Shown piece by piece: positions 6,393-49,130 of a stretch of DNA of 64,000 nt (position 1 is its first letter; each line of letters begins with the position of its first letter). The stretch lies in IMG/VR virus record IMGVR_UViG_3300011635_000012; one strand, 5' to 3'. The notes beneath the pieces were generated by a model, which saw nothing but the letters and a program-made list of their open reading frames with translations, made no database searches and was not told the origin of the DNA. Made by a program: the position numbers and the translations under genes. The stretch is from an uncultured virus (IMG/VR IMGVR_UViG_3300011635_000012). Its lineage: Duplodnaviria; Heunggongvirae; Uroviricota; Caudoviricetes.

Positions 6393-8141
6393 TTGATTGT
6401 GGCTAACTCTATCACAAAATTACGTAGTATGAATGTGGAAAGTTTTCGAGGTCTCAAGAATGTAAATATCTCATTTGGGGAGCGAATTACTGTTATTTGT
6501 GGTAAGAATGGCACATCAAAATCAACCATACTTGGAATTATTGCCCAAATTTTTAGTTTTTCCCGTGACTATTCTAAAGATCCTGCGGAGTTGCTGGGGT
6601 CCTATCGGACACTTACTGGTAATCGCTTTAAATCTCAATTTAGTGAGCACTTTAGGTTTTCAAGTAAATTTGATACACCTGGCGGGATGGAAGTGCAAAT
6701 AACACTCTATGATGGTGCATTTGAAAAAGAATTGAATAATTTAAGACTTGGTCTGGTTGACTCGACATATCATCAGAAAGCAAGGCCAGTTCTCAGAAAT
6801 AACGACGTCTTAGGCAATAAAAATACCAGTCGTAATGTCACTCACCCTGTAATTTACTTGAGCCTTCAGAGACTTTTACCAATAACGCTGAGACCTGAGT
6901 ATAGTGAGCGCGATGTCCAGTATATTATTGATAATAAAAAAGAAATTCTGTCAATGAACAGAAGATTACTTATCAAGGAAAATGGAACATCCATTACTGC
7001 TACCACAGGAACTATCGACTCAATGGTAGTGCATGGAGATAATTATGACCATGAATCGGTTTCTGTCGGTGAGGATAACGTTGGGCAGATTATTCAAGCT
7101 ATATTTTCTTTCAAAAGACTAAAGGATGAATTGAAAGATTATCATGGTGGCATGCTATTGATTGATGAGGCAGATGCTGGGCTTTTCCCTGCTGCGCAAA
7201 TTGAATTAATTAACGTGCTAAAAAAAATGGCTAGTAAGCTTGATTTGCAAATTGTTATGACATCACACTCACCTATCCTTATTGAGGAAGTGTTTAAATT
7301 AAGTAAAGTCGCTGATAAGGATTATAGGACAGTATATCTTACGGATACATATGGGCCTATTTCAGCTAAAACAAATCTTTCATGGCCAGAAATAAATGCT
7401 GATCTGCTTGTTGATACCATAAAAGTTGATGCGGAAGAAGCATTCCCTAAAATAAACATTTACTTTGAGGATTTTGAGGCTTATTTGTTCTTCAAACAAC
7501 TAATAACAGAAAGGCATATCAATAAAATACTCACTCCGCTAAAAGACGTAAATATAAGTTGTAGTACTATGTTAGATTTAATGGCGCGGAAAATACCAGA
7601 GTTCATTAATAAAAGTATAATAGTTCTGGATGGCGATGTTGTAAATGATAATGGCCAGAATGCAAAAAAAGCAAAATCTGAGAAGAGCCTGTGCTTATTA
7701 CCAACGACTCTTCCGCCAGATCAGCTTTTGTTTGAATTTTTGTATAATTTAGATAAAAAAGATTTGTATTGGCAAAAGAATCAAGGTTTCACAAGACAGG
7801 TTTTTATAAGAATTAGTGGCGATATTATAGATCGGCTCAATATAGTTGGAGAGAAAATATCTCTAGAAGACATTATTAAAAATTACAGAAAAGGTAAAAG
7901 TGAAGAGAGTGTAAAAGGAGAGCTTAGAAAGTTATTCAAGGCTTTTGCTCAAAATGATAAAATCCGTACGCTTTTAACTGGTCCAGTCAGTAAGAATCCG
8001 TTCAGGTATTGGATTAACCAAAATCCGGAGCTAAAACTTGAATTTAAGAAAAAATTTGAAGCTTGCTTAATTAATGCCCTAATTAGTGGTTTTGGTATTG
8101 ATTCCGGCAAAGTGTATGGTTACCTTCAAATCGATAACTGA
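6393..8141 (+). CDS. ABC-type (AAA_15/21) ATPase fused to a TOPRIM-like domain (OLD-like nuclease)
   Basis: Walker A GKNGTSKST, signature-like SVGE, Walker B LLIDEAD, H-loop TSHS; TOPRIM-like YFED and VLDGD; low GC; likely start GTG 6399. Confidence 0.8.
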   Translation: MIVANSITKLRSMNVESFRGLKNVNISFGERITVICGKNGTSKSTILGIIAQIFSFSRDYSKDPAELLGSYRTLTGNRFKSQFSEHFRFSSKFDTPGGMEVQITLYDGAFEKELNNLRLGLVDSTYHQKARPVLRNNDVLGNKNTSRNVTHPVIYLSLQRLLPITLRPEYSERDVQYIIDNKKEILSMNRRLLIKENGTSITATTGTIDSMVVHGDNYDHESVSVGEDNVGQIIQAIFSFKRLKDELKDYHGGMLLIDEADAGLFPAAQIELINVLKKMASKLDLQIVMTSHSPILIEEVFKLSKVADKDYRTVYLTDTYGPISAKTNLSWPEINADLLVDTIKVDAEEAFPKINIYFEDFEAYLFFKQLITERHINKILTPLKDVNISCSTMLDLMARKIPEFINKSIIVLDGDVVNDNGQNAKKAKSEKSLCLLPTTLPPDQLLFEFLYNLDKKDLYWQKNQGFTRQVFIRISGDIIDRLNIVGEKISLEDIIKNYRKGKSEESVKGELRKLFKAFAQNDKIRTLLTGPVSKNPFRYWINQNPELKLEFKKKFEACLINALISGFGIDSGKVYGYLQIDN

Positions 8142-8221
8142 TTGTTTTTCTGGTGAATTATTGTATGGCCATACCTTGCTTGTATTTGGTACAATATCGG
8201 CCTATACATATGAGGTGCTTT

Positions 8222-9082
8222 ATGCGGTTTAATACGCCACTACGTTATCCAGGCGGTAAAGGTAAGTTATTCAACTTTATGAGTAAAATCATAGGGATGA
8301 ACGATTTACAGGACCTGCATTACGCAGAGCCATACGCCGGCGGTGCCGGTTTGGCGTTGAAGTTACTATTCAAAGAAAATGCTTCACAAATATACCTTAA
8401 CGATTTGAACTTAGCTGTATATTCTTTTTGGGATAGTGTACTCAACCGAACTGAAGAATTATGCCATATGATCCTTACAACTGAAGTTTCTATGGATGAA
8501 TGGCATATTCAAAAGTCAATTATGACTAATCATGAAAGTAAGGATCTGCTCCAACTTGCTTTTGCTACATTTTTCCTTAACAGAACAAACCGCTCTGGTA
8601 TCCTTAAAGGCGGGGTGATCGGAGGTAAGAGTCAGGACGGAAAATGGAAATTGGATGCCAGATACAATAAGCAAGATTTAATTCAAAGAATTAAACTTAT
8701 AGCCGCGCAAAAAGATCGGATACATATTTATAATCTCGATGCTAATGATTTTATTACAAAAGTTGTAAAAAATCTGCCAAATCACTCTTTGACATATTTT
8801 GACCCTCCATACTATGTCAAGGGGAAAGGTCTATATGAAAATCATTATTTACATGAAGACCATGTTGTCATCGCCAATAGGATACAGACTGAGATTCAAA
8901 CACCATGGATAGTTTCATATGATAATGTTGCACCTATTCGAACGATGTACAATTCATCAAAAACCTTATCTTATGGAATCACCTATAGTGCCCAAGAGCG
9001 CTATACAGGCGACGAAGTTATGTATTTTAGTAATGGCCTAAAGTATCCGGAATGTGCTGACCCGGCAAAATTTAAAGGGTAA
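8222..9082 (+). CDS. DNA adenine methyltransferase (Dam/D12 class)
   Basis: PLRYPGGK, EPYAGG, FFLNRT, DPPY; GAGG RBS. Confidence 0.92.
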   Translation: MRFNTPLRYPGGKGKLFNFMSKIIGMNDLQDLHYAEPYAGGAGLALKLLFKENASQIYLNDLNLAVYSFWDSVLNRTEELCHMILTTEVSMDEWHIQKSIMTNHESKDLLQLAFATFFLNRTNRSGILKGGVIGGKSQDGKWKLDARYNKQDLIQRIKLIAAQKDRIHIYNLDANDFITKVVKNLPNHSLTYFDPPYYVKGKGLYENHYLHEDHVVIANRIQTEIQTPWIVSYDNVAPIRTMYNSSKTLSYGITYSAQERYTGDEVMYFSNGLKYPECADPAKFKG

Positions 9083-15465: not shown

Positions 15466-15579
15466 ATCCCCACAAGCGGATAAGGCAACCATGGTCAGCG
15501 CTTACGAGAAGCAATAGACGTTTAGACGTCTAAATAAGTGCCTTCTCATGGTTGCACGTGATAATTATTATCATTTAAT

Positions 15580-15670
15580 GGGTCCTCCCGGTGGGGTGGC
15601 CTGCCACGGGGCGGCTGGCGCGCGGAAAACGGCTAGTTTTTGCGATCTAGGGTCATCATCATCATTTATG
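15580..15670 (+). other. Helper cos site (cosQ 15580-15586; predicted cohesive end GGGCGGCTGGCG 15609-15620)
   Basis: GGGTCCT...CCACG GGGCGGCTGGCG CGCG parallels lambda cosQ/cosN; directly upstream of the small terminase. Confidence 0.85.
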
Positions 15671-18540: not shown

Positions 18541-20036
18541 GTTTTTTAGATGATGCGATTGGCCTGTTTTCACCAGGCTGGAAAGCCTCACGCCTGCGTG
18601 CCCGCGCGGTTATTAAGGCGTATGAGGCGGTAAAGCAAACACGTACCCACAAAGCCCAGAAGGAAAATCGTTCAGCCGATCAGCTCAGCCAGATGGGGGC
18701 GGTTTCACTGAGGCAGCAGGCGCGCTGGCTGGACAATAACCACGATCTGGTGATTGGCGTTTTCGACAAGCTGGAAGAAAGGGTGGTGGGTGCGAAGGGC
18801 ATCATAGTTGAACCGCATCCGATGCTTACCAACGGGAAGATCGCTAAAAAGCTGGCCACTGATATCCGCAGAAAGTGGGGCGAATGGTCCGTAAGACCCG
18901 ATGTTACAACCCAGTTTACCCGCCCCATGCTGGAGCGGCTTATGCTGCGAACGTGGCTCCGGGACGGTGAGGTATTTGCTCAGCTGGTTCGCGGCACCGG
19001 AAATGGTCTTCAGCCGGTTGCTGGCGTGCCGTTTTGGCTGGAAGCGCTGGAGCCGGACTTCGTGCCGATGAACAGCGATGCCGCCACCCAGCTCAATCAG
19101 GGCGTTTTTGTCGATAACTGGGGGCGCCCGAAAAAATATCAGGTCTATAAAAGCCTGCCAGTATCCGGGCGTCAGTTCGATACCAAAGAGATAGATGCAG
19201 AAAACATGCTTCATCTCAAATTCACACGACGCCTGCACCAGACCCGCGGAACGTCTCTTTTGTCAGGTGTTCTGATGCGTCTGAGTGCGCTGAAAGAGTA
19301 CGAGGACTCGGAGCTTACCGCTGCCAGAATTGCTGCGGCACTCGGCATGTATATCAAAAAAGGCGACGGACAGAGCTTCGATTCTGATTCCGGCAGCGAT
19401 GACCGCGAGCTGATGATTCAGCCCGGTATGCTCTATGACGAGCTGCAGGCCGGGGAAGAAATCGGGATGATTAAATCCGATCGCCCGAACCCTAACCTCG
19501 AGTCGTTTCGTAACGGACAGTTGCGTGCCGTGTCCGCCGGCAGTCGCCTCAGCTTTTCCAGCACATCCAGAAATTACAACGGAACGTACAGTGCCCAGCG
19601 GCAGGAGCTCGTCGAGTCAACCGACGGCTATCTGATTCTTCAGGACTGGTTCATCGGTTCAGTAACCCGGCCCATGTACCGGGCCTGGCTGAAGATGGCT
19701 ATTGCTGCCGGAGAAATCAAGCTGCCGAGAGGCATCGATATGGACTCGCTTTATAACGCGGTTTATTCGGGGCCCGTTATGCCGTGGATTGATCCCGTTA
19801 AAGAAGCGAATGCCTGGAAAACGCAGATCCGCGGCGGTGCTGCTACTGAATCCGACTGGATACGTGCCAGCGGTCGCAACCCGGATGATGTTAAGTCACG
19901 CCGAAAAGCGGAGGTTGACGAGAACCGTGAACAGGGCCTGGTGTTTGACACCGACCCCGCCAATGATAAAGGAGGCACCAGTGCCGAAGCCAAAGAACCG
20001 GGCGCGCCACCGTCCGAAAGCCAGCGCAAAAAGTAA
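18537..20036 (+). CDS. Portal protein (lambda family)
   Basis: RDGEVF, YSAQRQELVE, WIDPVKE. Confidence 0.93.
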   Translation: MSFLDDAIGLFSPGWKASRLRARAVIKAYEAVKQTRTHKAQKENRSADQLSQMGAVSLRQQARWLDNNHDLVIGVFDKLEERVVGAKGIIVEPHPMLTNGKIAKKLATDIRRKWGEWSVRPDVTTQFTRPMLERLMLRTWLRDGEVFAQLVRGTGNGLQPVAGVPFWLEALEPDFVPMNSDAATQLNQGVFVDNWGRPKKYQVYKSLPVSGRQFDTKEIDAENMLHLKFTRRLHQTRGTSLLSGVLMRLSALKEYEDSELTAARIAAALGMYIKKGDGQSFDSDSGSDDRELMIQPGMLYDELQAGEEIGMIKSDRPNPNLESFRNGQLRAVSAGSRLSFSSTSRNYNGTYSAQRQELVESTDGYLILQDWFIGSVTRPMYRAWLKMAIAAGEIKLPRGIDMDSLYNAVYSGPVMPWIDPVKEANAWKTQIRGGAATESDWIRASGRNPDDVKSRRKAEVDENREQGLVFDTDPANDKGGTSAEAKEPGAPPSESQRKK

Positions 20037-20352
20037 TTCGTGGTTCCGCATGCAGGCCAGCAATAACAGCGAGGCCGACATTTTTATTTATGACGAAATC
20101 GGGTACTGGGGCGTAACGGCGAAACAGTTCGTCAATGATCTCCGGGCACTTGGGGACGTCACCCACATCAACCTTTATATCAACTCGCCCGGTGGTGATG
20201 TCTTCGACGGTATTGCTATTTATAACGCGCTGAAGCACCACGGCGCGGCGATTACCGTGCATATCGACGGTCTGGCGGCATCCATGGCCTCGGTGATTGC
20301 GATGGTAGGCAATCCGGTCATCATGCCTGAAAACACGATGATGATGATCCAT
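19981..20352 (+). pseudogene. 5' part of the helper ClpP-major capsid fusion gene, interrupted by the satellite
   Basis: GGAGG RBS, GTG start; IYDEIG, INSPGGDVFDG, DGLAASMAS, ENTMMMIH, then non-homologous sequence. Confidence 0.9.
20341..20352 (+). repeat. Satellite attL core ATGATGATCCAT
   Basis: Identical to 31116-31127. Confidence 0.9.
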
Positions 20353-20480: not shown

Positions 20481-20504
20481 TGTGTATTGCAATGTGTATT
20501 GCAG
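20481..20504 (+). repeat. Integrase arm-type tandem repeat
   Basis: TGTGTATTGCAATGTGTATTGCAG, identical at 31023-31046. Confidence 0.8.
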
Positions 20505-20515
20505 AATGAGGTTTT

Positions 20516-21751
20516 ATGGCGGGCGAGAACAAGTTAAGCGACAAGGCGTTAAAAGCCTTACATGGTAAACCGCAGCCGCGTCAAAAGATGGTGGCTGATG
20601 GTCGCGGACTGTCTGTCAGAGTGAGCATGAGTGGCACAGTGAGTTTTGTATATTTCTTCAGACATTCCGGCCGACAAAGCGCCCCCGTCTGGATGACGTT
20701 AGGCAAGTATCCAGATATGACCCTTAAACAGGCCAGAGAGAAAAGGGACGAGTGCCGGGCATGGCTATCTCAGGGGCTCGACCCACGGATAGAGAACAAA
20801 CTCACCAAAGAGAGCCTGTTCACTCCGATAACTGTGAAGAACGCTATCGATTACTGGTTTGATAACTATGCAAGGGAGAAGCGCAAAGAGACAGTACGTC
20901 TCTATCGCCGTTATGAGAGATACATCTTTCCCTACATCGGCGGATTTCCTGTTGAGAAATGCGGTCTGTCAGACTGGATAAAATGCTTCGATCGCGTAAA
21001 GAAAGTAGCACCGGTTCAATCTGCCGCGATGCTTATTGAGTTAAAACAGATCTTCAAATACTGCCGGGTACGCCAGTATGTGCGGTGTAATGTGCTGGAC
21101 GACTTAAGCCCTGGCGATATTGGCAAGTATCAGAACAAGAGAGAGCGGTTACTCGAGGAAAGCTACGTTGCCGATCTGTGGGGAGTGTACTTTCATGGTA
21201 AAGGCAAAACCCGTGTAATGAATTACAAAAAAAGGATGGCGATTTTGTGTCTCGTGTTTGGTTGCAGGCTGAGTGAGGCGCGTTTATCTACATGGGATGA
21301 GTGGGATTTCGATAAGTGGATTTGGACAGTACCTAAAGAGCACAGTAAAAACGGCGAAGAAATTATTCGCCCCGTTCCTCAAAAAATGCGCCAGTGGATC
21401 GTAAACCTGCACGAAGAGACTAAAAGGAGAGGCTACATACTTGGCGAACTGAAATCTGATTCAACTGTCAGCACGATGGGATGCACAAACTTTACCTCCC
21501 TTAAACATGAAAAACGCTGGTCATTACATGATTTGAGACGAACGTTCTCGACAAGTCTTAACGATATGGGCGTTGATTTTATGGTCGTAGAGCAGCTGCT
21601 GGGGCATACCATAAAGGGCGTGGCCGGAATCTATAACCGCAGCAAGTATATTCCTCAAAAGCAAGAAGCACTGGACCGATGGATTGACTATCTTGATGGG
21701 CTGGTGGGTGAAGAAAAAACAGTTAAAGTGATTAAGAAAAGGAGCGCCTGA
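20516..21751 (+). CDS. Tyrosine integrase (P4-like arm-binding N-terminus)
   Basis: DGRGL, LGKYP; catalytic GCRLSE, HDLRR, LGH, GIY. Confidence 0.95.
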   Translation: MAGENKLSDKALKALHGKPQPRQKMVADGRGLSVRVSMSGTVSFVYFFRHSGRQSAPVWMTLGKYPDMTLKQAREKRDECRAWLSQGLDPRIENKLTKESLFTPITVKNAIDYWFDNYAREKRKETVRLYRRYERYIFPYIGGFPVEKCGLSDWIKCFDRVKKVAPVQSAAMLIELKQIFKYCRVRQYVRCNVLDDLSPGDIGKYQNKRERLLEESYVADLWGVYFHGKGKTRVMNYKKRMAILCLVFGCRLSEARLSTWDEWDFDKWIWTVPKEHSKNGEEIIRPVPQKMRQWIVNLHEETKRRGYILGELKSDSTVSTMGCTNFTSLKHEKRWSLHDLRRTFSTSLNDMGVDFMVVEQLLGHTIKGVAGIYNRSKYIPQKQEALDRWIDYLDGLVGEEKTVKVIKKRSA

Positions 21752-21752
21752 T

Positions 21753-21989
21753 ATGGCTACGTTGTCTGTTCTGAAAAAAGAAGATCTCCAGTACATGCCT
21801 GAGCTTGACCGAATGATTCGGGAACCAGAATGCAGGGCAATGACCACGCTGTCTAACTCAACGCGCTGGCGCATGGAACAGGAAGGAAAATTTCCAAAGC
21901 GCATAAAAATCGGCCCGTCAGCTGTCGCATATCGGCTTTCTGAGGTGCAAGCTTGGATTAAAGGAAATTGGTTCGATAAAAATAAATGA
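21753..21989 (+). CDS. alpA: AlpA-family regulator/excisionase
   Basis: LSNSTRWRMEQEGKFPKRIKIG..VAYRLSEVQAW. Confidence 0.9.
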   Translation: MATLSVLKKEDLQYMPELDRMIREPECRAMTTLSNSTRWRMEQEGKFPKRIKIGPSAVAYRLSEVQAWIKGNWFDKNK

Positions 21990-22035: not shown

Positions 22036-22746
22036 TTATTTTAATGAGCACTCTTCTAATAGCATTCCTATGAAGTGATGAGAGCCTATGATATATTTTT
22101 GAAGAGGAAATGCCATGCCAGTAAGTGATTCGTTAAGCTTACCTTTGAAAGGAGGGAAAACTTCTAAACCAGAATCTACTATGTTCAGATGTTTTATTTT
22201 ATTATTCAGTACTCTACATTCATTAATGTCATCATAAGATGGCAATGTCTCAAAGTTGATTCCATATGACAGGAATTTGCTTTTTATTGTATCCCATTTG
22301 TAAGGCGTTTTAACTTCATTTAAATCTTTATTTTCTTTTTGAGATATTAGATTGGCCAATCCCCTGGTCATATATTGTTCATTCATGGCCCATAAGTTTA
22401 TAACGACACTATCGTTAGCAATGTAAGACGCTTTTTCATTCAAATCAGTTTGGTGGTTAATGTATTCCATATGTCTTGCAAAGCTGAGTTGATACGCTTC
22501 ATACTCGTCTTCAGAAAGGGAATTTTTTTGTTCGTCATCAAGAAAGTTAAATTTATTATATTGTACATCAATTGCTTTTTTGTTTTTTGAATAGGTGTTG
22601 ATAACAAAGCGATGAAAAACAACTATATCTTCCAATCTATAATTGAACTCGAATAATAATGAGTTAAAAGGGCTTTTTCGTGGGAAGTAATGATCAAATT
22701 TCTCTACGAACATAAAATATTCAGATGGTGTATATAAATCATCCAT
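22036..22746 (-). CDS. Low-GC cargo protein, possibly HEPN-like
   Basis: 236-aa AT-rich ORF; RVLNNKIKH near the C-terminus. Confidence 0.6.
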   Translation of the reverse strand: MDDLYTPSEYFMFVEKFDHYFPRKSPFNSLLFEFNYRLEDIVVFHRFVINTYSKNKKAIDVQYNKFNFLDDEQKNSLSEDEYEAYQLSFARHMEYINHQTDLNEKASYIANDSVVINLWAMNEQYMTRGLANLISQKENKDLNEVKTPYKWDTIKSKFLSYGINFETLPSYDDINECRVLNNKIKHLNIVDSGLEVFPPFKGKLNESLTGMAFPLQKYIIGSHHFIGMLLEECSLK

Positions 22747-23592: not shown

Positions 23593-23916
23593 ATGATTAA
23601 AAAATTCAATCAGGTTCAGCCTGAGGGCGTCGCTCAACCAAAAATTGAGCTTAACAGCCGCTGGAAAGATTCTCGCGGGGAAAAAATTACTGTCACATGT
23701 GTAACGGATAGCCGAATTACGTATGTCCGGGATGGGTATTCCCATGAATGTGTTTTTTCTGAGTACCGGTTCCGAAATGAATTTATCTACCTTCCTGACG
23801 ATAGCCGGGAGTCGCAGGAGGCCGTAAAAGAAAACGGGCGTAAAAAAATCGCTGCTCTGCGATCTACTCTGCCGCTGAGTGTTGGATCTGACGGATGGGA
23901 TAAGGGGCTGAAATGA
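23593..23916 (+). CDS. DUF4222-like satellite protein
   Basis: WKDSRG..ITYVRDGYSHEC. Confidence 0.6.
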   Translation: MIKKFNQVQPEGVAQPKIELNSRWKDSRGEKITVTCVTDSRITYVRDGYSHECVFSEYRFRNEFIYLPDDSRESQEAVKENGRKKIAALRSTLPLSVGSDGWDKGLK

Positions 23917-25709
23917 AAAACGCACCGAACCTGAAACATCTGCCAAAGGAAAAATTCACGGAAGCAGTTATTTTTGCCGGGTCAGATGCATACACCCATG
24001 CGAAGGGTTGGGAAGAGGGGCTGGGTAAACAAATCGCGGAAGATACCATACCTCCTGTTTACCTTGGGCCAAAACAGCTGGCTGAGCTGGATAATCTGCG
24101 CATTGTGGATGATGGACGTCGAGCTGCGCGTGTATACCTTGCCGGAGATATTGAGCCGATCATGATTAATGCGATTGCCGAGAAGCTGGCGCGCGCCGGA
24201 GTCCAGCATGCAAAATTATACAAGGGCATACCGGATCGCCAGCCAGAAGACTGGCACGATTATCTGGAAAGGATCCGTGCAGATAACGTTGTGGCGCTTC
24301 CTGTAGCCCGGAAAGAAAAAAGCCAGGATAACGTTACTCCAGCGTTAAACCAGATGGGGGCAAGTCAGCGCGGTGAGGTACTTCTTGCGCACTATAGCGG
24401 GGATCTGGCGATCAATGCCGACTCTGATACCGTACATCATTACAACGGTGTGGTGTGGTTGCCGCTGCCGGATAAAGAGTTACAGCGTGAAATGGCGCAA
24501 ATCTTTATTGAAGCGGACGTTGCGTACTCGCAGAACGGTATCAAGTCAGCGGTGGAAACCATGAAGTTAAGTCTCCCGGTAATGGGGGTGACTGCCCGAA
24601 ACCTGATTGGCTTCAGTAATGGCGTATTTGATACCCGCACAGGAGAATTCCGACAGCACAGAAAAACGGACTGGCTTTTGATCGCCAGTGAGCTGCCATT
24701 CAGTCCACCAGCCGAAGGGGAGACGCTTGCCACTCATGCACCGAATTTCTGGAAGTGGCTCCGCCGTTCTGTAGCCAATAATGACCGCAAGACAGATCGT
24801 GTACTGGCGGCGCTGTTTATGGTGCTGGCGAACCGGTACGACTGGCAGCTGTTTCTTGAAGTAACGGGGCCGGGCGGCAGCGGTAAAAGCGTGATGGCGG
24901 AAATCTGTACCATGCTGGCAGGTAAAGCCAACACGGTGTCTGCCAGCATGAAAGCGCTGGAAGATGCCCGGGATCGCGCGCTGGTGGTTGGCTATTCGCT
25001 GATTATCATGCCGGATATGACCCGATATGCCGGGGATGGGGCCGGGATTAAAGCCATTACTGGTGGAGATAAAGTGTCTATCGACCCCAAACACAAAGCA
25101 CCATACTCGACCCGAATCCCGGCTGTTGTGCTGGCGGTCAACAATAACGCTATGACATTCAGCGACCGCAGCGGAGGGATTTCGCGACGCCGGGTGATAT
25201 TTAATTTCTCTGAGGTAGTGCCGGAGGGCGAACGCGATACGATGCTGGCCGAGAAGATCGAAGGTGAGCTGGCGGTTGTTATCCGACATCTGCTGACACG
25301 TTTTGCCGATCAGGACGATGCGCGGCGTTTACTGCACGAGCAGCAGAAATCAGAGGAAGCGCTGGCGATTAAACGTGAAGGTGATTCGCTGGTGGACTTC
25401 TGCGGTTACCTGATGGCTTCAGTTGTGTGTGATGGGATGTTTATCGGTAACGCCGAGATAGTGCCGTTCAGCCCGCGTAAATATCTCTATCATGCTTATC
25501 TGGCTTACATGCGTGCCAATGGCCTGAGCAAACCCGTATCGTTAATGCGCTTCGGTTCTGATATGCCAGGCGCAATGGCTGAGTATGGCAAGGAGTACCA
25601 GAAGCGCAAAACTAAACATGGCATAAGATCGAACGTCACTCTGCATGATGATTCAGAAGATTGGATGCCATCCTGTTCCAGTATTTCTGAAAGCAGCGGG
25701 GTAGAGTAA
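23913..25709 (+). CDS. P4-family/D5-like primase-helicase
   Basis: SF3 Walker A GPGGSGKS, KAITGGD, GISRRRVIF. Confidence 0.92.
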   Translation: MKNAPNLKHLPKEKFTEAVIFAGSDAYTHAKGWEEGLGKQIAEDTIPPVYLGPKQLAELDNLRIVDDGRRAARVYLAGDIEPIMINAIAEKLARAGVQHAKLYKGIPDRQPEDWHDYLERIRADNVVALPVARKEKSQDNVTPALNQMGASQRGEVLLAHYSGDLAINADSDTVHHYNGVVWLPLPDKELQREMAQIFIEADVAYSQNGIKSAVETMKLSLPVMGVTARNLIGFSNGVFDTRTGEFRQHRKTDWLLIASELPFSPPAEGETLATHAPNFWKWLRRSVANNDRKTDRVLAALFMVLANRYDWQLFLEVTGPGGSGKSVMAEICTMLAGKANTVSASMKALEDARDRALVVGYSLIIMPDMTRYAGDGAGIKAITGGDKVSIDPKHKAPYSTRIPAVVLAVNNNAMTFSDRSGGISRRRVIFNFSEVVPEGERDTMLAEKIEGELAVVIRHLLTRFADQDDARRLLHEQQKSEEALAIKREGDSLVDFCGYLMASVVCDGMFIGNAEIVPFSPRKYLYHAYLAYMRANGLSKPVSLMRFGSDMPGAMAEYGKEYQKRKTKHGIRSNVTLHDDSEDWMPSCSSISESSGVE

Positions 25710-26038: not shown

Positions 26039-26614
26039 ATGTCTACGATAGTTGATTTGGTGTCGGCTCTGGTTTGGCCCGGAGTAACCGTTTGGTTTAT
26101 CAATAAATATGGTGATGATGTAAAGTCTCTCATACTAAGATTATCTCGAATCAAAATGGGGGGCGCTGAGGCGGAATTCGCTGAAAATCTTGATGTGGCT
26201 GAGGCACTGGCTATTGATACTCCAGTAGTAAATATTAAAGATGCTGTACATGATGAAGATACCGAGTTTTCTCGCAGATTATCTGCTCTACAGCGAATCG
26301 CTGATGTTTCTCCTCGAGCTGCAATAATGGAATCATGGCTGTTGATTGAGGAAGCCGCAGGAAAAGCTGGATTCGTTCAGGGTGCGACGATCCCTCGCAT
26401 AAACATTCCTCTTTTTTTAGATTGGTTGGTGCGTGAACATAGAATAGATAAAAACACCGCTAAGTTAGTAGAAAAAATGCGGCATTTAAGGAATTCAGCC
26501 GCACATTTAAGAGATTTCGAATTAACACGAGATGAAGCTGAACGTTATCTGAAACTAGCAACAAGACTTTCTCTTATCATTGTCGACCAAGAAGTTGATC
26601 TCATTAATGAATGA
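26039..26614 (+). CDS. Membrane-anchored HEPN-like protein
   Basis: N-terminal TM (LVWPGVTVWF), RNSAAH = RxxxxH; own terminator 26637-26659. Confidence 0.65.
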   Translation: MSTIVDLVSALVWPGVTVWFINKYGDDVKSLILRLSRIKMGGAEAEFAENLDVAEALAIDTPVVNIKDAVHDEDTEFSRRLSALQRIADVSPRAAIMESWLLIEEAAGKAGFVQGATIPRINIPLFLDWLVREHRIDKNTAKLVEKMRHLRNSAAHLRDFELTRDEAERYLKLATRLSLIIVDQEVDLINE

Positions 26615-26765: not shown

Positions 26766-26960
26766 ATGGCTGATAAGAGCAAATCGATGCAGGATAAGGG
26801 CGGAACTGTCCATATCGACGCCGAAACCATGAAGAAAATTGAGGAGTATCAGGCGTTCATTAAAAAGAATCACCCTGAAATGCCTGTCCCCACCAAAGGC
26901 CAGATCGTTCGCAGCAGCGTGAACTACTGGCATCACCAGACGCTGGGGGCATGGCTATGA
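26766..26960 (+). CDS. Small satellite protein upstream of capsid
   Basis: ATGA overlap with the capsid gene. Confidence 0.6.
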   Translation: MADKSKSMQDKGGTVHIDAETMKKIEEYQAFIKKNHPEMPVPTKGQIVRSSVNYWHHQTLGAWL

Positions 26961-28873
26961 AAGGCTGGTACGCCATCAAGGCGGCCAGCGATGGCGCAAG
27001 TGCAACAATTCAGGTTTATGAGGAGATCGGCGGATGGGGTATTACTGCGCAGCAGTTTGCCGATGACCTGAAAGCCCTGGGCGATGTATCGCACATCAAC
27101 CTGAACATTCACTCCCCGGGCGGTGACGTATTCGACGGCATCGCTATCTATAACTTTCTGAGCAAACATCCGGCAAAAATCACTGTGCACATCGATGGGC
27201 TGGCGGCGTCTATGGCGTCAGTTATCGCAATGGCAGGGGATCGCATCGTCATGCCTGAGAATGCCCTCATGATGATTCACAAGCCGTGGGGCATTTCAGG
27301 CGGGAACGCCAACGACATGCGCGACTATGCCGAGCTTCTGGACAAAGTTGAAAACGTCCTTATCCCGGCCTATGCACGCAAAACGGGTAAATCTGCTGAG
27401 GTTCTGGCAGCGATGCTGGAAGAAGAAACCTGGATGAACGGTGCTGAATGTGTGGCCCAGGGCTTCGCCGATGAGCTATTACCGGCGGTTAGCGCAATGG
27501 CCTGTATTGAATCGAAACGAATTGAGGATTTTGAGCATATGCCAAAAGAAATTAAAGGGATGATCACCAGCCCGAAAGGTTCCACCAGTAGCGCTGTACC
27601 GGAACAGAACCGCATCAACGGGATTAAGGATCTGTTTGCCATGTTCGGCGGCAAGCATGATTCTCTCAAGATGCAGTGTCTGGAGGATGTGGATTGCACG
27701 CCTGAAAAAGCAAAAGACATGCTGCTGACGGCACTGGGTAAGACCTCGACCCCATCGGATAAAACCAGTAACGCGCATATTTACGCAGGTAACGGCAACA
27801 TTACCGGCGATGCTATCCGCCAAGGGCTTTTTGCCCGTATGGGTCACGAACGCGCCGAAAGGGGAAACCCTTACGCCATGATGAGTCTATTTGAAATGGC
27901 GCAGGCTTCGCTGGTGGATCGAGGTATCAGTGTTAGTGGTTTCGGTAACCGCTCGCAGATTGTTAATCTGGCCTTCACGCACAGCACCAGTGATTTCTCT
28001 CATATCCTGGCTGGTGGTGCTGAAAAGTCGGTGCTGACTGGCTGGCAGAACAGCGGGGAAACTTTCCAGCAGTGGACAAAGACCGGTTCTCTGTCGAATT
28101 TCCATGAGGCTAAACGTGTCGGTCTGAATGGTTTTTCAGAACTGGATAAAGTCCCGGAAGGTGCTGAATACAAATATGTCACCACCAGCGACAGCGGTGT
28201 GCCTATCGCGCTGGCTACCTATGGAAACATCTTCTCTGTTACCCGCCAGGCCATTATCAACGATGACCTGAGCCAGCTCACGACAATCCCACAGGCAATG
28301 GGGCGTGCCGCTGCACGAACGGTTGGCAATCTGGTCTACCTGCAACTGACCGCTAACAGCAAATTCACAGATGGTAAAGCGTTGTTCCACGTCGACCATA
28401 AAAACCTCATCGCTAAAGGGATGGATACAGACGGACTCAATGAGGCCCGTAAGGCCATGCGCCTGCAGGAGGATGCAAACGGCGACCCTATCAACGTCAT
28501 TCCTGCCTATATTCTCGTACCGGCGGCGCTGGAAGGGCAGGCAAATCGCGCCGTGCTCTCCTCCTCTTCACTGTTCCCGGTAGACCAGAGTGGCACGCTG
28601 AATCAAAACCCCGGCATTATTAACGTCGTGAAGGATATGGCGCAGGTAGTGGTTGAGCCGCGACTGGACAAGGCCAACAACAAGGAGTGGTACGTCACTG
28701 CAGCGCAAGGCGCCGACACTATCGAGGTGGCTTATCTGGATGGAATGGACGTGCCGTATCTGGAGCAGCAAGAGGGCTTCACTGTGGACGGTATTGCATG
28801 GAAGGTGCGTATCGATGCTGGCGTGGCGGCGCTGGATTATCGGGGTATGGTGAAGTCGAGCGGGGCGGCATGA
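26957..28873 (+). CDS. Satellite ClpP-major capsid fusion protein
   Basis: Colinear with the helper gene: SPGGDVFDG, MMIHKPWG, THSTSDF, TRQAIINDDL, VRIDAGVA. Confidence 0.93.
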   Translation: MKGWYAIKAASDGASATIQVYEEIGGWGITAQQFADDLKALGDVSHINLNIHSPGGDVFDGIAIYNFLSKHPAKITVHIDGLAASMASVIAMAGDRIVMPENALMMIHKPWGISGGNANDMRDYAELLDKVENVLIPAYARKTGKSAEVLAAMLEEETWMNGAECVAQGFADELLPAVSAMACIESKRIEDFEHMPKEIKGMITSPKGSTSSAVPEQNRINGIKDLFAMFGGKHDSLKMQCLEDVDCTPEKAKDMLLTALGKTSTPSDKTSNAHIYAGNGNITGDAIRQGLFARMGHERAERGNPYAMMSLFEMAQASLVDRGISVSGFGNRSQIVNLAFTHSTSDFSHILAGGAEKSVLTGWQNSGETFQQWTKTGSLSNFHEAKRVGLNGFSELDKVPEGAEYKYVTTSDSGVPIALATYGNIFSVTRQAIINDDLSQLTTIPQAMGRAAARTVGNLVYLQLTANSKFTDGKALFHVDHKNLIAKGMDTDGLNEARKAMRLQEDANGDPINVIPAYILVPAALEGQANRAVLSSSSLFPVDQSGTLNQNPGIINVVKDMAQVVVEPRLDKANNKEWYVTAAQGADTIEVAYLDGMDVPYLEQQEGFTVDGIAWKVRIDAGVAALDYRGMVKSSGAA

Positions 28874-28880
28874 CGACAGG

Positions 28881-28905
28881 AGGGCGGCAGATGCTGCCCT
28901 TTTTT
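28881..28905 (+). terminator. Intrinsic terminator
   Basis: AGGGCGGCA-ga-TGCTGCCCT plus T run. Confidence 0.75.
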
Positions 28906-28908
28906 AAA

Positions 28909-29000
28909 AGGTACTCCCGGCGGGGATGCCTGCCACGGGGCGGCGGCATCGCGGGAAACGGCTAGTTTTTGGTTTTCATGGACATCATCATCATCTTATA
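28909..29000 (+). other. Satellite cos site
   Basis: CCTGCCACGGGGCGGC..CGCGG.AAACGGCTAGTTTTT shared with the helper cos; same cosQ-cosN spacing. Confidence 0.85.
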
Positions 29001-29085: not shown

Positions 29086-29286
29086 ATGCGTTTAATAAAA
29101 CTGACAATCAGCGAACTTGCTGCTGTAACTGGAATTCATCGGCAGACGATATCCAAGCGGCTTAAAGAAACTGAGCCTCTTCCGGGAAGCAGCTCTAAGA
29201 AAAAAATCTACGATTTGAAAGTGGCGTTAAAGGTCCTGTATTCAGATAAGAGGAAAACAGAATGTAAAACAAAACCGAAATTATGA
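29086..29286 (+). CDS. Mini small-terminase wHTH (Rpp-like candidate)
   Basis: LTISELAAVTGIHRQTISKRLK vs helper LNINQLAGITGVHRQTVAARLK. Confidence 0.75.
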   Translation: MRLIKLTISELAAVTGIHRQTISKRLKETEPLPGSSSKKKIYDLKVALKVLYSDKRKTECKTKPKL

Positions 29287-29316
29287 TGACTGTTAGGCTG
29301 GGCATCATTCAAAAGC

Positions 29317-29493
29317 AATCCCCTCAGGCTATTGGATTAGCAGGCAAACAATCTGCAGATAACAGGACCAGTGATGCTTTCGGCGGTGTGACCAATACAG
29401 TTTCTCAGGGATATTCAGTCCCACTGCTTTATGGTGAGCGTTGTAGAAGGAGCCATCATTTCAGCTGGTATCTATGTTGAAGAGCAGTTGTAA
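29317..29493 (+). pseudogene. Decayed 3' fragment of tail assembly gene I
   Basis: SPQAIGLAGKQSADNR..FGGVTNTVSQGY.VPLLYG, then frameshift to GAIISAGIYVEEQL*. Confidence 0.8.
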
Positions 29494-29608: not shown

Positions 29609-30307
29609 TCAGGTCTTAGGAATGTCCTGATTTTTTTCGATAAACGCCCTAAGGTCTTCTTTCTCTTTTTGACGGTCTTCTGACGTATATATATGGGTGC
29701 TGATTTTCTTATGCCCACTGGTGATGTGAGATATATCTTGCTGAATTTTTTCGAGGCTTTTTGCGATTGAGTAGAGATTTGGCGTTCCTAACTGGTATGT
29801 GCCTTTAAGCTCTGACATATCAATGATTGACTGTTCTATATACTTAACGCCGGTTGTACTCTGGTATGAAATCTCGATAACTAGAACAGACTCAATTTTA
29901 TCATTATAATGCTGTGTCATTTGACTGTAATGAGAGAAACGTTCTTGTCCTGGGCCGAAGTACTTCAACCCTATTTTTAAAAAATTTGCTTTAGTGAAAT
30001 CATCAATGAGAGTTTGTGCTATTTGACCACCGGAGATGACTTTTAGATTAAATTTGATGTTTATGGCAGGCCCGAGGCCTATGTTCCTGACATGCAATCG
30101 AACGATATTTATAGCAAAATCAAAAGGTTTGATGGTTATTTCAATCTTTGGTTCTGTCTGAACTTGTCTCATTTTGGTTGTTTCAGAAACCAGTTTTCCT
30201 GTAAGAATGGAATAAACAACCGTTGATAAAGTAACAACTGCTGTGAATAGAACGGTTAGCGCACCAGAATTTTTATTTAGGAAATATAAAACCTCGGATG
30301 TACTCAT
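29609..30307 (-). CDS. Low-GC membrane-anchored hypothetical protein
   Basis: N-terminal TM; VRNIGLGPA. Confidence 0.7.
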   Translation of the reverse strand: MSTSEVLYFLNKNSGALTVLFTAVVTLSTVVYSILTGKLVSETTKMRQVQTEPKIEITIKPFDFAINIVRLHVRNIGLGPAINIKFNLKVISGGQIAQTLIDDFTKANFLKIGLKYFGPGQERFSHYSQMTQHYNDKIESVLVIEISYQSTTGVKYIEQSIIDMSELKGTYQLGTPNLYSIAKSLEKIQQDISHITSGHKKISTHIYTSEDRQKEKEDLRAFIEKNQDIPKT

Positions 30308-30522
30308 CTTTAGGCCTCGCATTTATAAAAGTAGAAGTGGTTATCGGGGATGAACTTATCTGCAAATACTACGCTCGGGTTTCCTATGATACCCATAGGA
30401 AATTCCAAGGGCTTAAGCTTGTGCGCAAGCCCTTGAAATTTGGTTGCTCCTAATGGATGTGAACCAGCAACCAAGCGATATGGAATTTCTACTAAATGTA
30501 TGAGCATTTCAATTTAAGTATA

Positions 30523-30882
30523 TTAAACAGAAAAGTTGTAATAACTGCTAGTTTCATAATCGAATATGGTGATGCTATTACCTGATATAGTTACATCAAA
30601 ATAACATGATGAGTCATAATCGAAACCTGAGTAATTACTTCCAGATAACTTAAGGTCTACATAACTACTTGAATCATAATTAAAAAAATTCAGCGTTTGC
30701 GCATTGGAACCTGAAAAGTAAGACGAGGATGTATAGTCAAACCCATTCACTATACCGCCATCCAATTTAGTGTCGAGATTTATATAAGTGGACCTCGATT
30801 GATCGAATACACTTGTGATTCTCTTATTTAACTTATGCGCCGCGACGATTGAAGCGACCCTGGCACGTACATTCTGTTTCAT
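30523..30882 (-). CDS. Low-GC small protein with FDYxSSxY repeats
   Basis: Five imperfect internal repeats. Confidence 0.7.
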   Translation of the reverse strand: MKQNVRARVASIVAAHKLNKRITSVFDQSRSTYINLDTKLDGGIVNGFDYTSSSYFSGSNAQTLNFFNYDSSSYVDLKLSGSNYSGFDYDSSCYFDVTISGNSITIFDYETSSYYNFSV

Positions 30883-31022: not shown

Positions 31023-31046
31023 TGTGTATTGCAATGTGTATTGCAG
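31023..31046 (+). repeat. Integrase arm-type tandem repeat
   Basis: Identical to 20481-20504. Confidence 0.8.
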
Positions 31047-31115: not shown

Positions 31116-32771
31116 ATGATGATCCATAAGCCCTGGGGGTTTGCTGGTGGTGACGCGAGCGATATGCGCGACTATGCGGATCTTCTCGACAAGGTTGAAT
31201 CCGTTCTTATCCCGGCGTATGCGCAGAAAACCGGAAAATCCACTGAAGAAATTGCGGCAATGCTGGAGGACGAAACCTGGATGAACGGCAGCGAGTGCCT
31301 TGAACTGGGTTTTGCCGACCAGGTGACACCATCCCTTCAGGCTATGGCCTGTATTCATTCAAAACGTATTGAGGAATTTGAAAAAATGCCAAAAAGCATT
31401 CGCAACATGATCACCCCGCCGCGCAACACTACCCAGCGTGACCCGGTTATTACCCAGCCTCAGGCACCACAGGCAAATACAGACCCGGCACCGGATGAAA
31501 ATGCGATCCGCGCGCAGGTGTTGGCTGAGCAGAAAGCCCGTGTTAACGCTATCGGCGATCTCTTTGCCATGTTCGGCAATAAGCACATGGATCTGCAGAA
31601 TCAGTGTGTGGCCGACCCTGATTGTTCCGTCGATAAGGCGAAAGATTTGCTGCTGGCAGAACTCGGTAAAACGGCCACGCCGTCCAATAAAACCACTCAG
31701 CCACATATTCATGCGGGCAACGGTAACTTCGTCGCGGATGGTATTCGCCAGGCACTGATGGCGCGTGCCGGGTTCGAAGGTCAGGTGCGGGATAACGTTT
31801 ATAACGGTATGACGCTGCGCGAGTATGCGCGTATGGCCCTGACAGAAAAAGGTATCGGCGTGGCCAGCTACAACCCGATGCAGATGGTTGGCCTGGCGCT
31901 GACCCACAGCACCTCTGACTTTGGCAACATTCTGCTTGATGTTGCGAACAAAGCGCTGATTCAGGGCTGGGACGAGGCGCAGGAAACCTTCGAGCAGTGG
32001 ACCAAAAAAGGCCAGCTGTCCGACTTCAAAACGGCGCATCGTGTCGGTATGGGTGGTTTCCCTTCTCTGCGACAGGTTCGCGAAGGGGCTGAGTACAAGT
32101 ACATCACTACCAGTGACAAAGGCGAAACCATCGCGCTTGCCACGTATGGTGAAATCTTCTCAGTAACCCGCCAGGCGATCATCAACGACGATCTGAACCA
32201 GCTTACCGACGTACCGATGAAGATGGGGCGCGCGGCGAAAGCAACGATTGGCGATCTGGTTTACGCCATTCTGACCAAAAACCCGAAACTCTCAGACGGA
32301 AAGGCGCTGTTCCATGCCGATCACAAGAACCTGAGCTCGGGCGCAATTTCTGTGGCCAGCCTGGACGAATCGCGCAAGCTGATGCGTCTGCAGAAGGAGG
32401 GGGAGCGAACCCTGAATATCCGTCCAGCCTACATGCTGGTGCCCGTCGCCCTGGAAACTCTGGCAAATCAGACCATCAAGTCGGCAAGTGTTAAAGGTGC
32501 AGACATCAATGCCGGGATCGTTAACCCTATCCAGAACTTTGCAGAAGTCATTGCCGAACCGCGCCTGGATGAAGCTGATGCGAAAGCTTGGTATCTGGCT
32601 GCCGCGAAGGGCACCGACACCATCGAGGTCGCTTATCTCAACGGCGTCGACACGCCATACATCGATCAGCAGGAAGGCTTCACCACTGATGGTATCGCCA
32701 CGAAAGTGCGTATTGATGCAGGTGTGGCACCGCTGGACTACCGCGGTATGACCAAATCCTCTGGTCAGTAA
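31116..32771 (+). pseudogene. 3' part of the helper ClpP-major capsid gene (starts at attR core 31116-31127)
   Basis: MMIHKPWG continues the 5' part in frame; reconstituted product ~671 aa. Confidence 0.92.
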
Positions 32772-45796: not shown

Positions 45797-46933
45797 ATGC
45801 TTTATAACACTGGCACCATAGCCATTAACGGAAATACGGCCACCGGCACCGGCACAAACTGGACAGCACCCGCCAGCCAGGTTCGCGCTGGTCAGACGAT
45901 TATCGTCATGTCTAACCCGGTCCAGATGTTCCAGATTTCATCCGTGAACAGCGCCACGTCAATGACGGTTACGCCCGCTGCTTCCCCGGCGCTGAGCGGC
46001 CAGAAGTATGGAATCCTTGTGTCGGACAATATCTCGGTCGACGGCCTGGCGCAGGCCATGTCGCAGCTCATCAAAGAGTATGACGAGAATATTGGCGCAT
46101 GGGAGACATTCGCCACAACCTCAGCGAACCAAACTATCACCGTTACCATTAACGGAGCTTCCGTGAATATTCCGGGCATTGGTGCACTTGCCAGAAAGGG
46201 GGCAAACAGCGATATCACGGAGCTGAAAGGACTCACTACTGCGCTTTCTATTGCGCAGGGCGGGACCGGGGCAACGACTGCAGCAGACGCTCGCTCAAAC
46301 CTCGGTTTAGGAAGTAGTGCGACGAGGAATGCTTACAGTTCCTCCGGGGATATGCTTTCCATAGGGGATTTTGGGGTTGGGGCTTACTCAGAAGCTAAAC
46401 CGACTGAAGCCAGAAGTTCATTTATCAGCGAAACCAATTCATCCACTGCATGGGCACCAGCAAATGGTGCCGGTTATCAAAGCTCCTACGCCGTAAACAG
46501 AATATTTCAGATGTGGATTGGTTCCAATGGTTCTGGCTTTAGTCGATTTGTTTCAACGAATAACCCCCAGGAACCTAAAGCTAACATTCCATGGACGCAG
46601 TACCAGGCTTCTGGCACGTCGGACATTAACTTTAAGAAAGTGACAGGGGAACTGGATTTAAACGAATCGCTCTCAAACATCGAGGCAATGGATTTTAAGA
46701 CCTTCTACTACCTCGCAGATGCAGCCAAAACGACTCGCCGCGGCGTGATTGCTCAGGAACTGGAAAAGATAGATCCGCAATATGTTCACTCAGCTGAGGA
46801 GTCGGGAAAAATGACGCTCGACCTCAATCCTCTGGTGCTCGATGCGCTCGCAGCAATCAAAGCGCTGGCAATCCGCGTCAGCGCATTAGAGGGAGACGCT
46901 AAACCTCCGGTTCCTGGCTCATCCGCTGATTAA
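45797..46933 (+). CDS. Side tail fibre, constant N-terminus plus cassette A (S74-type chaperone C-terminus)
   Basis: GANSDITEL, GGTGATTAADARSNLGL, SDINFKK..GVIAQEL. Confidence 0.85.
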   Translation: MLYNTGTIAINGNTATGTGTNWTAPASQVRAGQTIIVMSNPVQMFQISSVNSATSMTVTPAASPALSGQKYGILVSDNISVDGLAQAMSQLIKEYDENIGAWETFATTSANQTITVTINGASVNIPGIGALARKGANSDITELKGLTTALSIAQGGTGATTAADARSNLGLGSSATRNAYSSSGDMLSIGDFGVGAYSEAKPTEARSSFISETNSSTAWAPANGAGYQSSYAVNRIFQMWIGSNGSGFSRFVSTNNPQEPKANIPWTQYQASGTSDINFKKVTGELDLNESLSNIEAMDFKTFYYLADAAKTTRRGVIAQELEKIDPQYVHSAEESGKMTLDLNPLVLDALAAIKALAIRVSALEGDAKPPVPGSSAD

Positions 46934-47710
46934 ACGCAGAATCATCAGGCATATCCAAGCGCACATCGATCCAGCTGTTCGCCGGTACGTCCATTGGTAG
47001 ACCTTTCGTTTTGATGATCTCTCCGTCATTGCCCAGCATGTATTTGCGCTTGAACAGGCGAATTGTCAGCTCTCCGTTATCGGTTTGCTCTGCCTCAACC
47101 ACGCCCAGTTCCCCCATGCCGCCAGGGTCCATTGGCGGCAGTAACTGCCATCCCTCAGATGCCAGGCCAGCCGAACCGGCGAGCACATAAACACCTACAT
47201 CAAGGCGAGAAAGAATCACTCCTTCAGCTTCTGCATTTGCTGTTCCGCACCCACACCAGACAAAACCATCTTCCGCTATGTCGGCACGCTGGCACTCTTC
47301 CTGGCTCGCTACGATACGCGCAACCGGAGACGCTGCCTTCAGGGTGCCATCACTGGCTTTCGTGGTATTCGATGTTGTATAGAATTCAGCCCAGCCTGTG
47401 AATCCCGCACTTCCATTAGAAACTCGCAGAGCTGCACGCGTACTGGAAAGGCATGTGAATGCCATTTGTGAGTAAGTCGCCCCACCTACCCCAATTTGCA
47501 GAATGCTTTGCCATTGGCCAGGAAATGCACCGACGTTATCTGCCGCGGCCCAGTAGCCAAATCCGGTCGGCCCCGGCTGCGCTGAAGTGGCGGGATTTAT
47601 CGGTTTCGCATTACTGGATGAAAGGAGCAATCCAACACCAAAATCTCCCTCTGAAAGCATCTTCCCGGAAGCGCTGTAAGCATCTCTTGTCGCACTACTT
47701 CCTAAACCGA
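46899..47710 (-). CDS. Silent alternative fibre C-terminal cassette B
   Basis: Open frame from the crossover site: GLGSSATRDAYSASGKMLSEGDFG. Confidence 0.8.
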
Positions 47711-47716
47711 CGATAA

Positions 47717-48477
47717 TTATAATGCCTTTATTTGCTCTTCTAATTTGCTTATGCGTCGAAGAAGCTGCTGAACAACGGGTACTAAATAAGCAGCACCTAT
47801 TTCTCCTGGATCAATAATTTTACCATCTTCATAAATAATGTTTTCTTCGGTTTCTTCATCCCATACTGACAGTTGAGACACCTGGACCAACTCACGATCT
47901 AAAGCTTCAACGTTCTGAGCGCTGTAACCAACACGCACCTGGTCTGGTGTCCACTTGTACGAATAGCGGATGGGTTTCAGCCCGGTTATGAAGGCTACTG
48001 CTTCATCTTCGGTAATCTCGCGCACAATGTTTTTAACCCGCTCATCAGACGCTACGGGGGTGATATTCCCGTTATTGGTTTGAATAACACTCCCACCCTG
48101 GATGAAATACCAGAACGAACCAAAAGAACCTGAATCAAAGGTGCCAATGTACGGACCGCAAGCTGCCGCCGAGCCACTTCCATTGATGTAAGCGCCAAAG
48201 GAAGCGTTCATAGTCCACGAATCTGTCCCATAACGCTGGGTAAAACCCTTCGTCACAAAGCTGGTAGATGTGCTGTTGGTCGCTTTGGTAGTGATGATTC
48301 CGCCGCTGGGATTGCCCGCAGCAGGAGCCAGTATGGTCGATATACCCGTCAACCCCGTTATATCATTGTTGTTTCCTGATGAAGCTGCTGAGAGGTTTTT
48401 ACGCGCATCAGCCGGCAATTTTCCTCCAGTACCCCCCATGCTGACCGGAACGGTATCATTGTTATCTACTAAACCGA
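47717..48477 (-). CDS. Silent alternative fibre C-terminal cassette C (S74-type chaperone)
   Basis: Open frame from the crossover site: GLVDNNDTVPVSMGGTGG; SDERVKN. Confidence 0.8.
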
Positions 48478-48554
48478 CGTTTTATAGATTGCTCTTGAGC
48501 GGCCTGGCCGATAACTTCACCTGATTTTTTTGCAGAAATAACTGGGTGAAAAAT

Positions 48555-49130
48555 ATGCAAGTTGGCTATGTAAGGGTGTCAACAAATGACCAAAATACGG
48601 ATCTTCAGCGGCAAGCACTCGAACGCGCAGGATGTGAACATATTTTCGAAGAAAAAATGAGCGGAACGGTAGCGAACCGACCAGTACTAAAAAAGCTTCT
48701 CAAGGCATTAAATGAGGGGGATACACTGGTGGTCTGGAAGTTGGATCGCCTTGGGCGCAGCATGCGTAATCTTGTGCTGCTGGTGGACGAGCTCCGGCAG
48801 CGCGGTATCCACTTTAAGAGCCTCACGGACAGTATCGATACATCAAGCCCGATGGGGCGCTTCATCTTTCATATCATGTCAGCCCTGGCGGAAATGGAGA
48901 GGGAGTTGATTGTTGAGCGCACCCGGGCAGGCCTGGCAGCAGCTCGTGAGAAAGGGCGAATCGGCGGCAGGCGTCCGAAGCTTACCCCGGAGCAATGGGA
49001 TCAGGCGGGCCGATTGATTGCGAACGGCGTGGACAGGAAGAAGGTGGCGATCATTTATGATGTGGCTGTTTGCACGCTCTATAAAAAATTCCCAGTAAAT
49101 AAAGACGTTACACGAACTTCAACACATTAA
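48555..49130 (+). CDS. Serine DNA invertase (Gin/Pin/Hin family)
   Basis: GYVRVSTNDQ, WKLDRLGRS, GRIGGRRP, HTH. Confidence 0.95.
   Translation: MQVGYVRVSTNDQNTDLQRQALERAGCEHIFEEKMSGTVANRPVLKKLLKALNEGDTLVVWKLDRLGRSMRNLVLLVDELRQRGIHFKSLTDSIDTSSPMGRFIFHIMSALAEMERELIVERTRAGLAAAREKGRIGGRRPKLTPEQWDQAGRLIANGVDRKKVAIIYDVAVCTLYKKFPVNKDVTRTSTH

Follow-up and report, generated by a model that had tools for sequence, protein, structure and literature searches.

The closest described counterparts of the element analysed here are the helper-embedded PICIs (HE-PICIs) that occupy site C:CLP_protease:110 (Tommasini, Mageeney, Williams 2023, PMC10111431). According to the accessible parts of that paper, the founder HE-PICI, 11capE, interrupts a capsid gene and bears a capsid gene of its own; the composite replicates and the satellite excises on induction, particles were not obtained, and the authors propose a backup role for the satellite capsid gene. 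Each of the 31 gene profiles given for C:CLP_protease:110 in its supplement (parts 69-70) includes a CLP_protease gene of its own; the order is Int, AlpA ... Primase, H.14, CLP_protease, after which DUF1441 and Lambda_tail_I often come, and two published portal-site profiles also bear the gene. A capsid gene is present in most Gram-negative PICIs, and a change of head shape is its presumed role.

A satellite with its own capsid fusion inside that of its helper is thus an arrangement already in print. The accessible text of PMC10111431 holds no comparison of satellite and helper proteins and the available part of its preprint makes no mention of linker, scaffold or capsid size; our literature search, which most subscription journals lay beyond, found no comparison of satellite and phage versions of the fusion. 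What we add is small: a short scaffold arm that runs through the satellite lineage, and a predicted internal start.

The embedded element and its helper prophage

The window is a stretch of 64,000 nucleotides from an uncultured virus (IMG/VR record IMGVR_UViG_3300011635_000012), in which a satellite of 10,775 bp lies between 12-bp direct repeats at 20341 and 31116.

19981..20352 (+), helper fusion gene, 5' piece, starting at a GTG behind a strong ribosome-binding site; 124/124 residues identical to phage mEp213
20341..20352 (+), 12-bp attL core, falling on the helper protease's Met-Met-Ile-His codons; same core as C:CLP_protease:110 (supplement of PMC10111431, in the part available)
20481..20503 (+), doubled HE-PICI attP motif, int-side copy (motif match)
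20516..21751 (+), tyrosine integrase, 411 aa (profile match)
21753..21989 (+), AlpA regulator/excisionase (profile match)
23913..25709 (+), P4-type primase-helicase, 598 aa (Pfam/PHROGs)
26766..26960 (+), 64-aa gene (phrog_4934), its stop overlapping the capsid start (PHROGs)
28886..28905 (+), terminator-like hairpin after the capsid gene (sequence)
28903..28994 (+), cos-like site just before terS, 80% identical to helper 15574-15665
29086..29286 (+), 66-aa homologue of the TerS DNA-binding domain (DUF1441), Rpp-like and much shorter than Rpp (Pfam/PHROGs)
29283..29480 (+), tail assembly gene remnant, lambda gpI-like (PHROGs)
31023..31045 (+), doubled HE-PICI attP motif, second copy (motif match)
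31116..31127 (+), attR core, direct repeat of attL, closing the element
31116..32771 (+), 3' piece of the helper fusion gene; 545/551 residues identical to mEp213; holds a predicted internal start at 31386

There is very little doubt that this is an HE-PICI at site C:CLP_protease:110. The element lies co-oriented in a prophage late gene, and it shares with the elements described for that site, in those parts of PMC10111431 that are accessible, the same 12-bp core, the doubled attP motif, the 9-12 kb size and the gene order, which here runs integrase, AlpA, primase and late zone. The core sits on the codon for the catalytic His of the helper protease. The nearest edges of the two motif copies are 76.5 and 134.5 bp from the core midpoint, giving a sum of 211 bp as against the published 213 +/- 4 (one copy about 81 bp upstream of the attP centre, the other 132 bp downstream), with the proviso that the reference point used in PMC10111431 may differ from the core midpoint from which we measured. 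The integrases of relatives at the same site are 93-100% identical. We also considered whether divergence from the core protects the satellite's own gene against integration: it differs from the core at 2 of 12 bases, yet in 7 of 15 same-site satellites and in 20 of 76 phage genes the last base is the sole difference, and no clear rule emerged.

As the initial annotation had stated, the element encodes neither a portal nor a large terminase; none was found in the 15 element ORFs scanned against Pfam and PHROGs. The cos-like site resembles the cos of lambda. The 66-aa TerS-like protein is 59% identical to helper TerS over 39 aa, and among 76 distinct loci bearing the satellite capsid gene such an ORF is of full length (161-167 aa) in 25, reduced to the DNA-binding domain (56-93 aa) in 38 and missing from 13. 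Relatives of the 64-aa gene precede the capsid gene in all satellite lineages examined; its product is a candidate regulator or assembly partner. The satellite also carries cargo genes at 22036-22746, 26039-26614, 29609-30322 and 30523-30882, three of them on the minus strand and one with a weak HEPN/DUF4145 match; PADLOC returned no match for these four genes.

Pfam CLP_protease matches to the pieces of the helper fusion gene run from position 109 of the profile, and intact helper-type fusion genes exist in relatives. Because the left end of the prophage appears to lie off the contig, we took the helper size from mEp213 (44,120 bp). The same satellite-helper composite is present in one piece in an independent assembly (run X3), and no attP or attB joint was seen in the contigs of 4 public DNA runs (from a list of 24 runs), contigs being an assembly product from which rare forms are dropped. 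The helper also bears an ATPase and methyltransferase pair (window 6393-9082), the second gene of which strongly matches PADLOC PD-Lambda-5_B, and 79-bp inverted repeats around a segment of the tail-fibre region at 46302-49130, adjoining a serine recombinase, probably mark an invertible host-range cassette.

The capsid fusion, its short arm and a predicted internal start

26957..28873 (+), satellite ClpP-scaffold-major capsid fusion, 638 aa, its ClpP triad positions occupied by Ser85, His108 and Glu157
27524..27541 (+), internal ribosome-binding site with ATG (Met195) predicted in the satellite gene, from which a scaffold-capsid of 444 aa would be made
27539..27634 (+), short linker, the N-terminal arm of the scaffold; 32 aa as against 59 aa in the helper (alignment with helper)
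28571..28606 (+), loop of the capsid domain, bearing an insertion of net 7 residues that is fixed in the satellite clade of Enterobacterales
31371..31388 (+), predicted internal ribosome-binding site and Met of the helper gene, start 31386, 461 aa

The satellite reading frame extends on the plus strand from 26951 or 26957 to 28873, and we take 638 aa as the right length because the ATG at 26957 has both the overlap with the upstream stop and the top Shine-Dalgarno score among the 25 in-frame Met codons. The protein scores 895 bits against NCBIfam NF045540 (cut-off 475), and its triad is invariant in 45 aligned relatives. In its predicted model a ClpP domain leads into a helical middle part, and the end has the HK97 fold; structural matches were obtained to ClpP (Z 19.6) and to HK97-fold shells (Z 12.7-13.6; VIA, without residue detail), Foldseek returned ClpP only, and sequence matches to Mu gpT-type capsids were weak (E 0.008-0.04).

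The initial annotation described the protein as colinear with that of the helper and as having a linker shorter by 27 residues, and both statements agree with our alignment (386/638 identities, 60.5%). An insertion in the capsid domain, also described there, is present, but since the loop is of 24 aa as against 17, a net gain of 7, the 12-residue stretch quoted for it is a replacement plus an insertion. From HK97 topology we take the insertion to lie in the A-domain near the capsomer centre. A third difference is that the basic N-terminal extension of the helper protein (~17 residues) is absent. Structure prediction, suggested at that stage as a check, was carried out for the satellite protein and a helper-type protein: the first scaffold helix is of 24 residues in the latter and 13 in the former, so the loss from the arm is not confined to disordered linker; the rest of it falls in linker modelled with low confidence (pLDDT under 50, pTM 0.47-0.48).

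The short arm marks every satellite-like copy that we examined. Among 193 distinct full-length genes, the span from protease to capsid is 166-188 residues in 70 that are satellite-like and 192-258 in 115 of phage type, with no overlap between the two, and 170-174 in 8 that are unclassed. In first scans of 171 genes the linker was 34-35 residues in 78 of 90 portal-less genes (those with matching anchors) and 56-74 in 80 of 81 phage genes, and the longer capsid loop was found in 86 of the portal-less genes and in none of the 81; the loop insertion is absent from a second satellite lineage. When the spans were tested at the level of groups, which are not independent, the result was p=3.6e-4 (5 versus 21 of 33 groups). 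The window's protein is near the very shortest in arm length among full-length representatives of the family; several other short ones come without genomic context, and the short-linker proteins P0145, P0009 and P0032 may include phages, a scan with P0145 having given only distant relatives. Some outlying loci (L011, L012, L253-L263) are also short-armed, but we do not claim convergent shortening, because a single origin of the short arm is not rejected (p-AU 0.22) and a small upstream gene is common to the distant short-arm lineages.

The opening Met of the linker has a Shine-Dalgarno-like word a short way upstream in 70/70 phage genes and 65/66 satellite genes, whereas at other Met codons such a word is found in 37 of 1668 cases in the phage set and 160 of 1481 in the satellite set. 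This signal persists through amino-acid changes, and its Glu codon is GAG in 70/70 phage genes, compared with roughly one third at other places. In L011 and L012 the signal is not evident. We infer that a second, protease-less scaffold-capsid product would be made from the internal start, in which case the 'linker' would be its N-terminal arm. Lambda C/Nu3 provides a comparable second product. The predicted scaffold-capsid frame of the helper, of 461 aa (31386-32771), lies wholly beyond attR, so that the insertion probably removes only the helper protease; terminator-like sites of the satellite precede this frame. The suggestion that the satellite gene is the only intact capsid gene while integrated therefore holds for the full-length fusion, but not for the predicted helper scaffold-capsid, whose frame stays whole. 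The internal start signal, the cos-like site, the TerS-like gene and the loss of the N-terminal extension had not been noted in the initial annotation.

Spread of the gene among satellites

Judged from trees and substitution rates, the gene is not a copy of this helper's and can be placed in an old satellite lineage under strong purifying selection. In a quick tree the satellite clade, 25 of 51 rows, is separate from all phage rows (SH-aLRT 100, stem 0.84); it spans four Enterobacterales families and is made up of relatives at 70-100% identity. Values of dN/dS are 0.04-0.13 in the protease, linker, scaffold, capsid and inserted loop alike, similar to those of phage copies (37 proteins, 641 pairs). 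An integrase is in view in 45 of the 76 loci and is of the window's type in 15, which in 13 cases stand directly behind a split capsid gene; the other 30 use different integrases, five of them inside terL. A cos-like motif is found 3' of the gene in 60 of the 74 loci with enough flank. In one locus, L258, the satellite splits the portal gene and the helper capsid gene is intact. Given the 30 loci with other integrases and the intact helper gene of L258, replacement of the interrupted gene, which the initial annotation had raised, is not why the satellite gene is kept. We conclude that it is a general PICI module that predates embedding at C:CLP_protease:110, because it is retained across integrases and sites and beside intact helper capsid genes.

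A second, distant satellite lineage (L012, L255-L263) has a fusion of 605-612 aa that is ~45% identical, with the shortest linker, no loop insertion and a full TerS, and is embedded in portal (L258) or terL (L263) with the helper capsid gene intact. Two further satellite-like loci fall outside the main clade: in a Thiopseudomonas MAG (L011:3595-11797) an integrase, the small upstream gene and a short-linker fusion occur with no primase gene, and in a metagenome contig (L253:3339-6395) the integrase directly precedes a module of small upstream gene and short-linker fusion. At L023:3330-15557 a satellite of this kind is inserted in the capsid gene of another satellite, a nested case already published. 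At L287:8956-12007, where a satellite lies in terL, an internal stop breaks its capsid gene, and a decoration (cement) gene and TerS come after it.

Possible roles of the satellite capsid and comparison with known systems

The arm is short relative to that of the phage copies examined, which may point to smaller heads suited to 11-kb DNA. Our tentative reading, to which we give a probability of about 45%, is that the protein steers assembly to small shells holding one 11-kb satellite genome. On induction the composite would replicate and the satellite excise, as with 11capE, after which late transcription would be likely to yield the full fusion together with the protease-less scaffold-capsid from the internal start. 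Assembly on the portal of the helper would involve satellite subunits, either by themselves or together with those of the helper; helper terminase, decoration protein and tail would finish the particles via the satellite cos, and the small heads would exclude the ~44-kb helper genome. Two published cases point the same way: Ccm is a satellite capsid paralogue that makes T=4 heads and has a delta domain of 87 residues as against 128 (PMC8569155, in the part available), a shorter scaffold that the short arm described here may be said to resemble, and PmCI172 is reported, in the account accessible, to be a Gram-negative PICI that encodes a capsid homologue and makes small heads. A 1.9-kb gene kept beside intact helper capsid genes would also seem to need a benefit that full-size heads would not obviously give. 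We favour small heads because the gene comes at a cost, shows strong conservation and persists next to helper genes that are intact, because its scaffold is shortened as in Ccm, and because of the PmCI172 precedent.

Several observations count against small heads. EcCICFT073, a cos PICI, packages only phage-size DNA, and deletion of its capsid gene changed neither transfer nor interference (PMC6092414, PMC6739421, as far as these are accessible). The 11 elements that could be mapped are 0.23-0.28 of the mEp213 genome and four copies of them 0.94-1.12, so that concatemers would fit a normal head. By the available description of a head-size model (PMC7762592) T=3 corresponds to 11.8 kb and T=4 to an average of 18 kb (13.2-24.5), and the satellite monomer, 0.24 of the helper genome, is small for T=4. 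The analogy with Ccm is weakened by the finding, in the part of PMC8569155 available, that Ccm is unable to form shells alone, and by its identity of only 24% to its helper capsid. Linker length varies from 56 to 74 residues among phages (span 192-258) with no shown effect on size, and therefore length alone need not set size; streamlining could also explain the short arm.

Close behind small heads stands the possibility that normal T=7 heads are built or joined by the satellite protein and that satellite DNA is carried in them as concatemers some four genomes long, the gene making protease and shell independent of the helper late gene or widening the range of helpers, and the short arm being a matter of streamlining. 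This is a possible account, though we rate it lower. EcCICFT073, the only E. coli PICI tested according to the sections available (PMC6092414, PMC6739421), is a precedent for it; four copies of 10,775 bp come to 0.98 of the mEp213 genome, the satellite protein has every domain and the triad intact, lambda-type HE-PICIs are reported in the available text to have the same 10-12 kb size, and the backup role proposed in the accessible part of PMC10111431 is in keeping with it. It accounts poorly, however, for strong selection on the gene in PICIs that are not embedded, and the deletion trims not only linker but also a helix conserved in phage copies. We think it improbable that the main effect of the protein is to disrupt helper assembly, with phage yield lowered by shells that are mixed or misprocessed, while the satellite uses ordinary helper heads via its cos and TerS-like protein. 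Identity of 60% would allow co-assembly, satellite-specific indels are present and interference is described, in the sources to hand, as general among PICIs; but protease, scaffold and capsid are all conserved as in phages, which is more than a poison needs, and the EcCICFT073 capsid gene is not needed for interference in the published parts available. Recent capture from this helper, merely to patch the interrupted gene, is very improbable: the proteins are of one family and colinear, all 31 published site profiles seen carry the gene and late-gene capture by PICIs is documented in the accessible literature, yet identity of only 60% and a separate deep clade largely refute it, as do the two-thirds of loci with integrases of other types (30/45) and those where the helper gene is intact.

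Small heads, full-size heads and the poisoning of assembly cannot be told apart from sequence data. The proteins of satellite and helper differ by three discrete, lineage-wide changes, and that of the helper is near-identical to its counterpart in the cultured E. coli phage mEp213, so that the capsid-size question can be tested directly; the short arm and the predicted internal start together make this easy. A wider proposal, which we regard as rather doubtful, is that such elements form a widespread class midway between PICIs and cf-PICIs, in which one protease-scaffold-capsid gene would suffice for small heads of the satellite's own (possibly T=3, to suit 10-12 kb), with arm length as the size switch, and borrowing only portal, terminase, decoration and tail; as the embedded form splits only the helper protease, helper shell subunits would depend on the satellite protease until excision.

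Comparison with known systems can be summarised as follows, within the parts of the cited sources that are accessible. The tripartite capsid proteins of the Gifsy-2/mEp213 type (NF045540) have the same domain order and belong to the same family as the satellite protein; the phage copies have a longer arm, no loop insertion and, in most, a basic N-terminal extension overlapping the portal gene, and Gifsy-2 itself is T=7 with 45.8 kb. The element is like cf-PICIs in being a satellite with capsid and protease functions of its own, but these encode their own TerL and head-tail proteins, neither of which is present here, and it is without a portal. With the cos-type Gram-negative PICIs that have Rpp, including EcCICFT073 (PMC6092414, PMC6739421), it shares int-alpA-primase, a capsid gene, cos and a TerS-like DNA-binding domain, and the lack of portal and TerL. 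The EcCICFT073 capsid gene adjoins a head decoration gene, whereas the present gene fuses protease, scaffold and capsid and no decoration gene accompanies it; Rpp, which binds helper TerS, is of 144-153 aa, as against the 66-aa ORF here (56-167 aa among relatives), which has the DNA-binding domain but is too short for the C-terminal dimerisation part of Rpp. Ccm of SaPIbov5 is likewise a paralogue of the helper capsid with a shorter scaffolding part, carried by a cos-packaged satellite (PMC8569155). It is 24% identical to the helper capsid, has no protease, forms pentamers only and has been shown to redirect size, whereas the satellite protein described here is 60% identical to its helper's, carries the protease and is a candidate for such a role.
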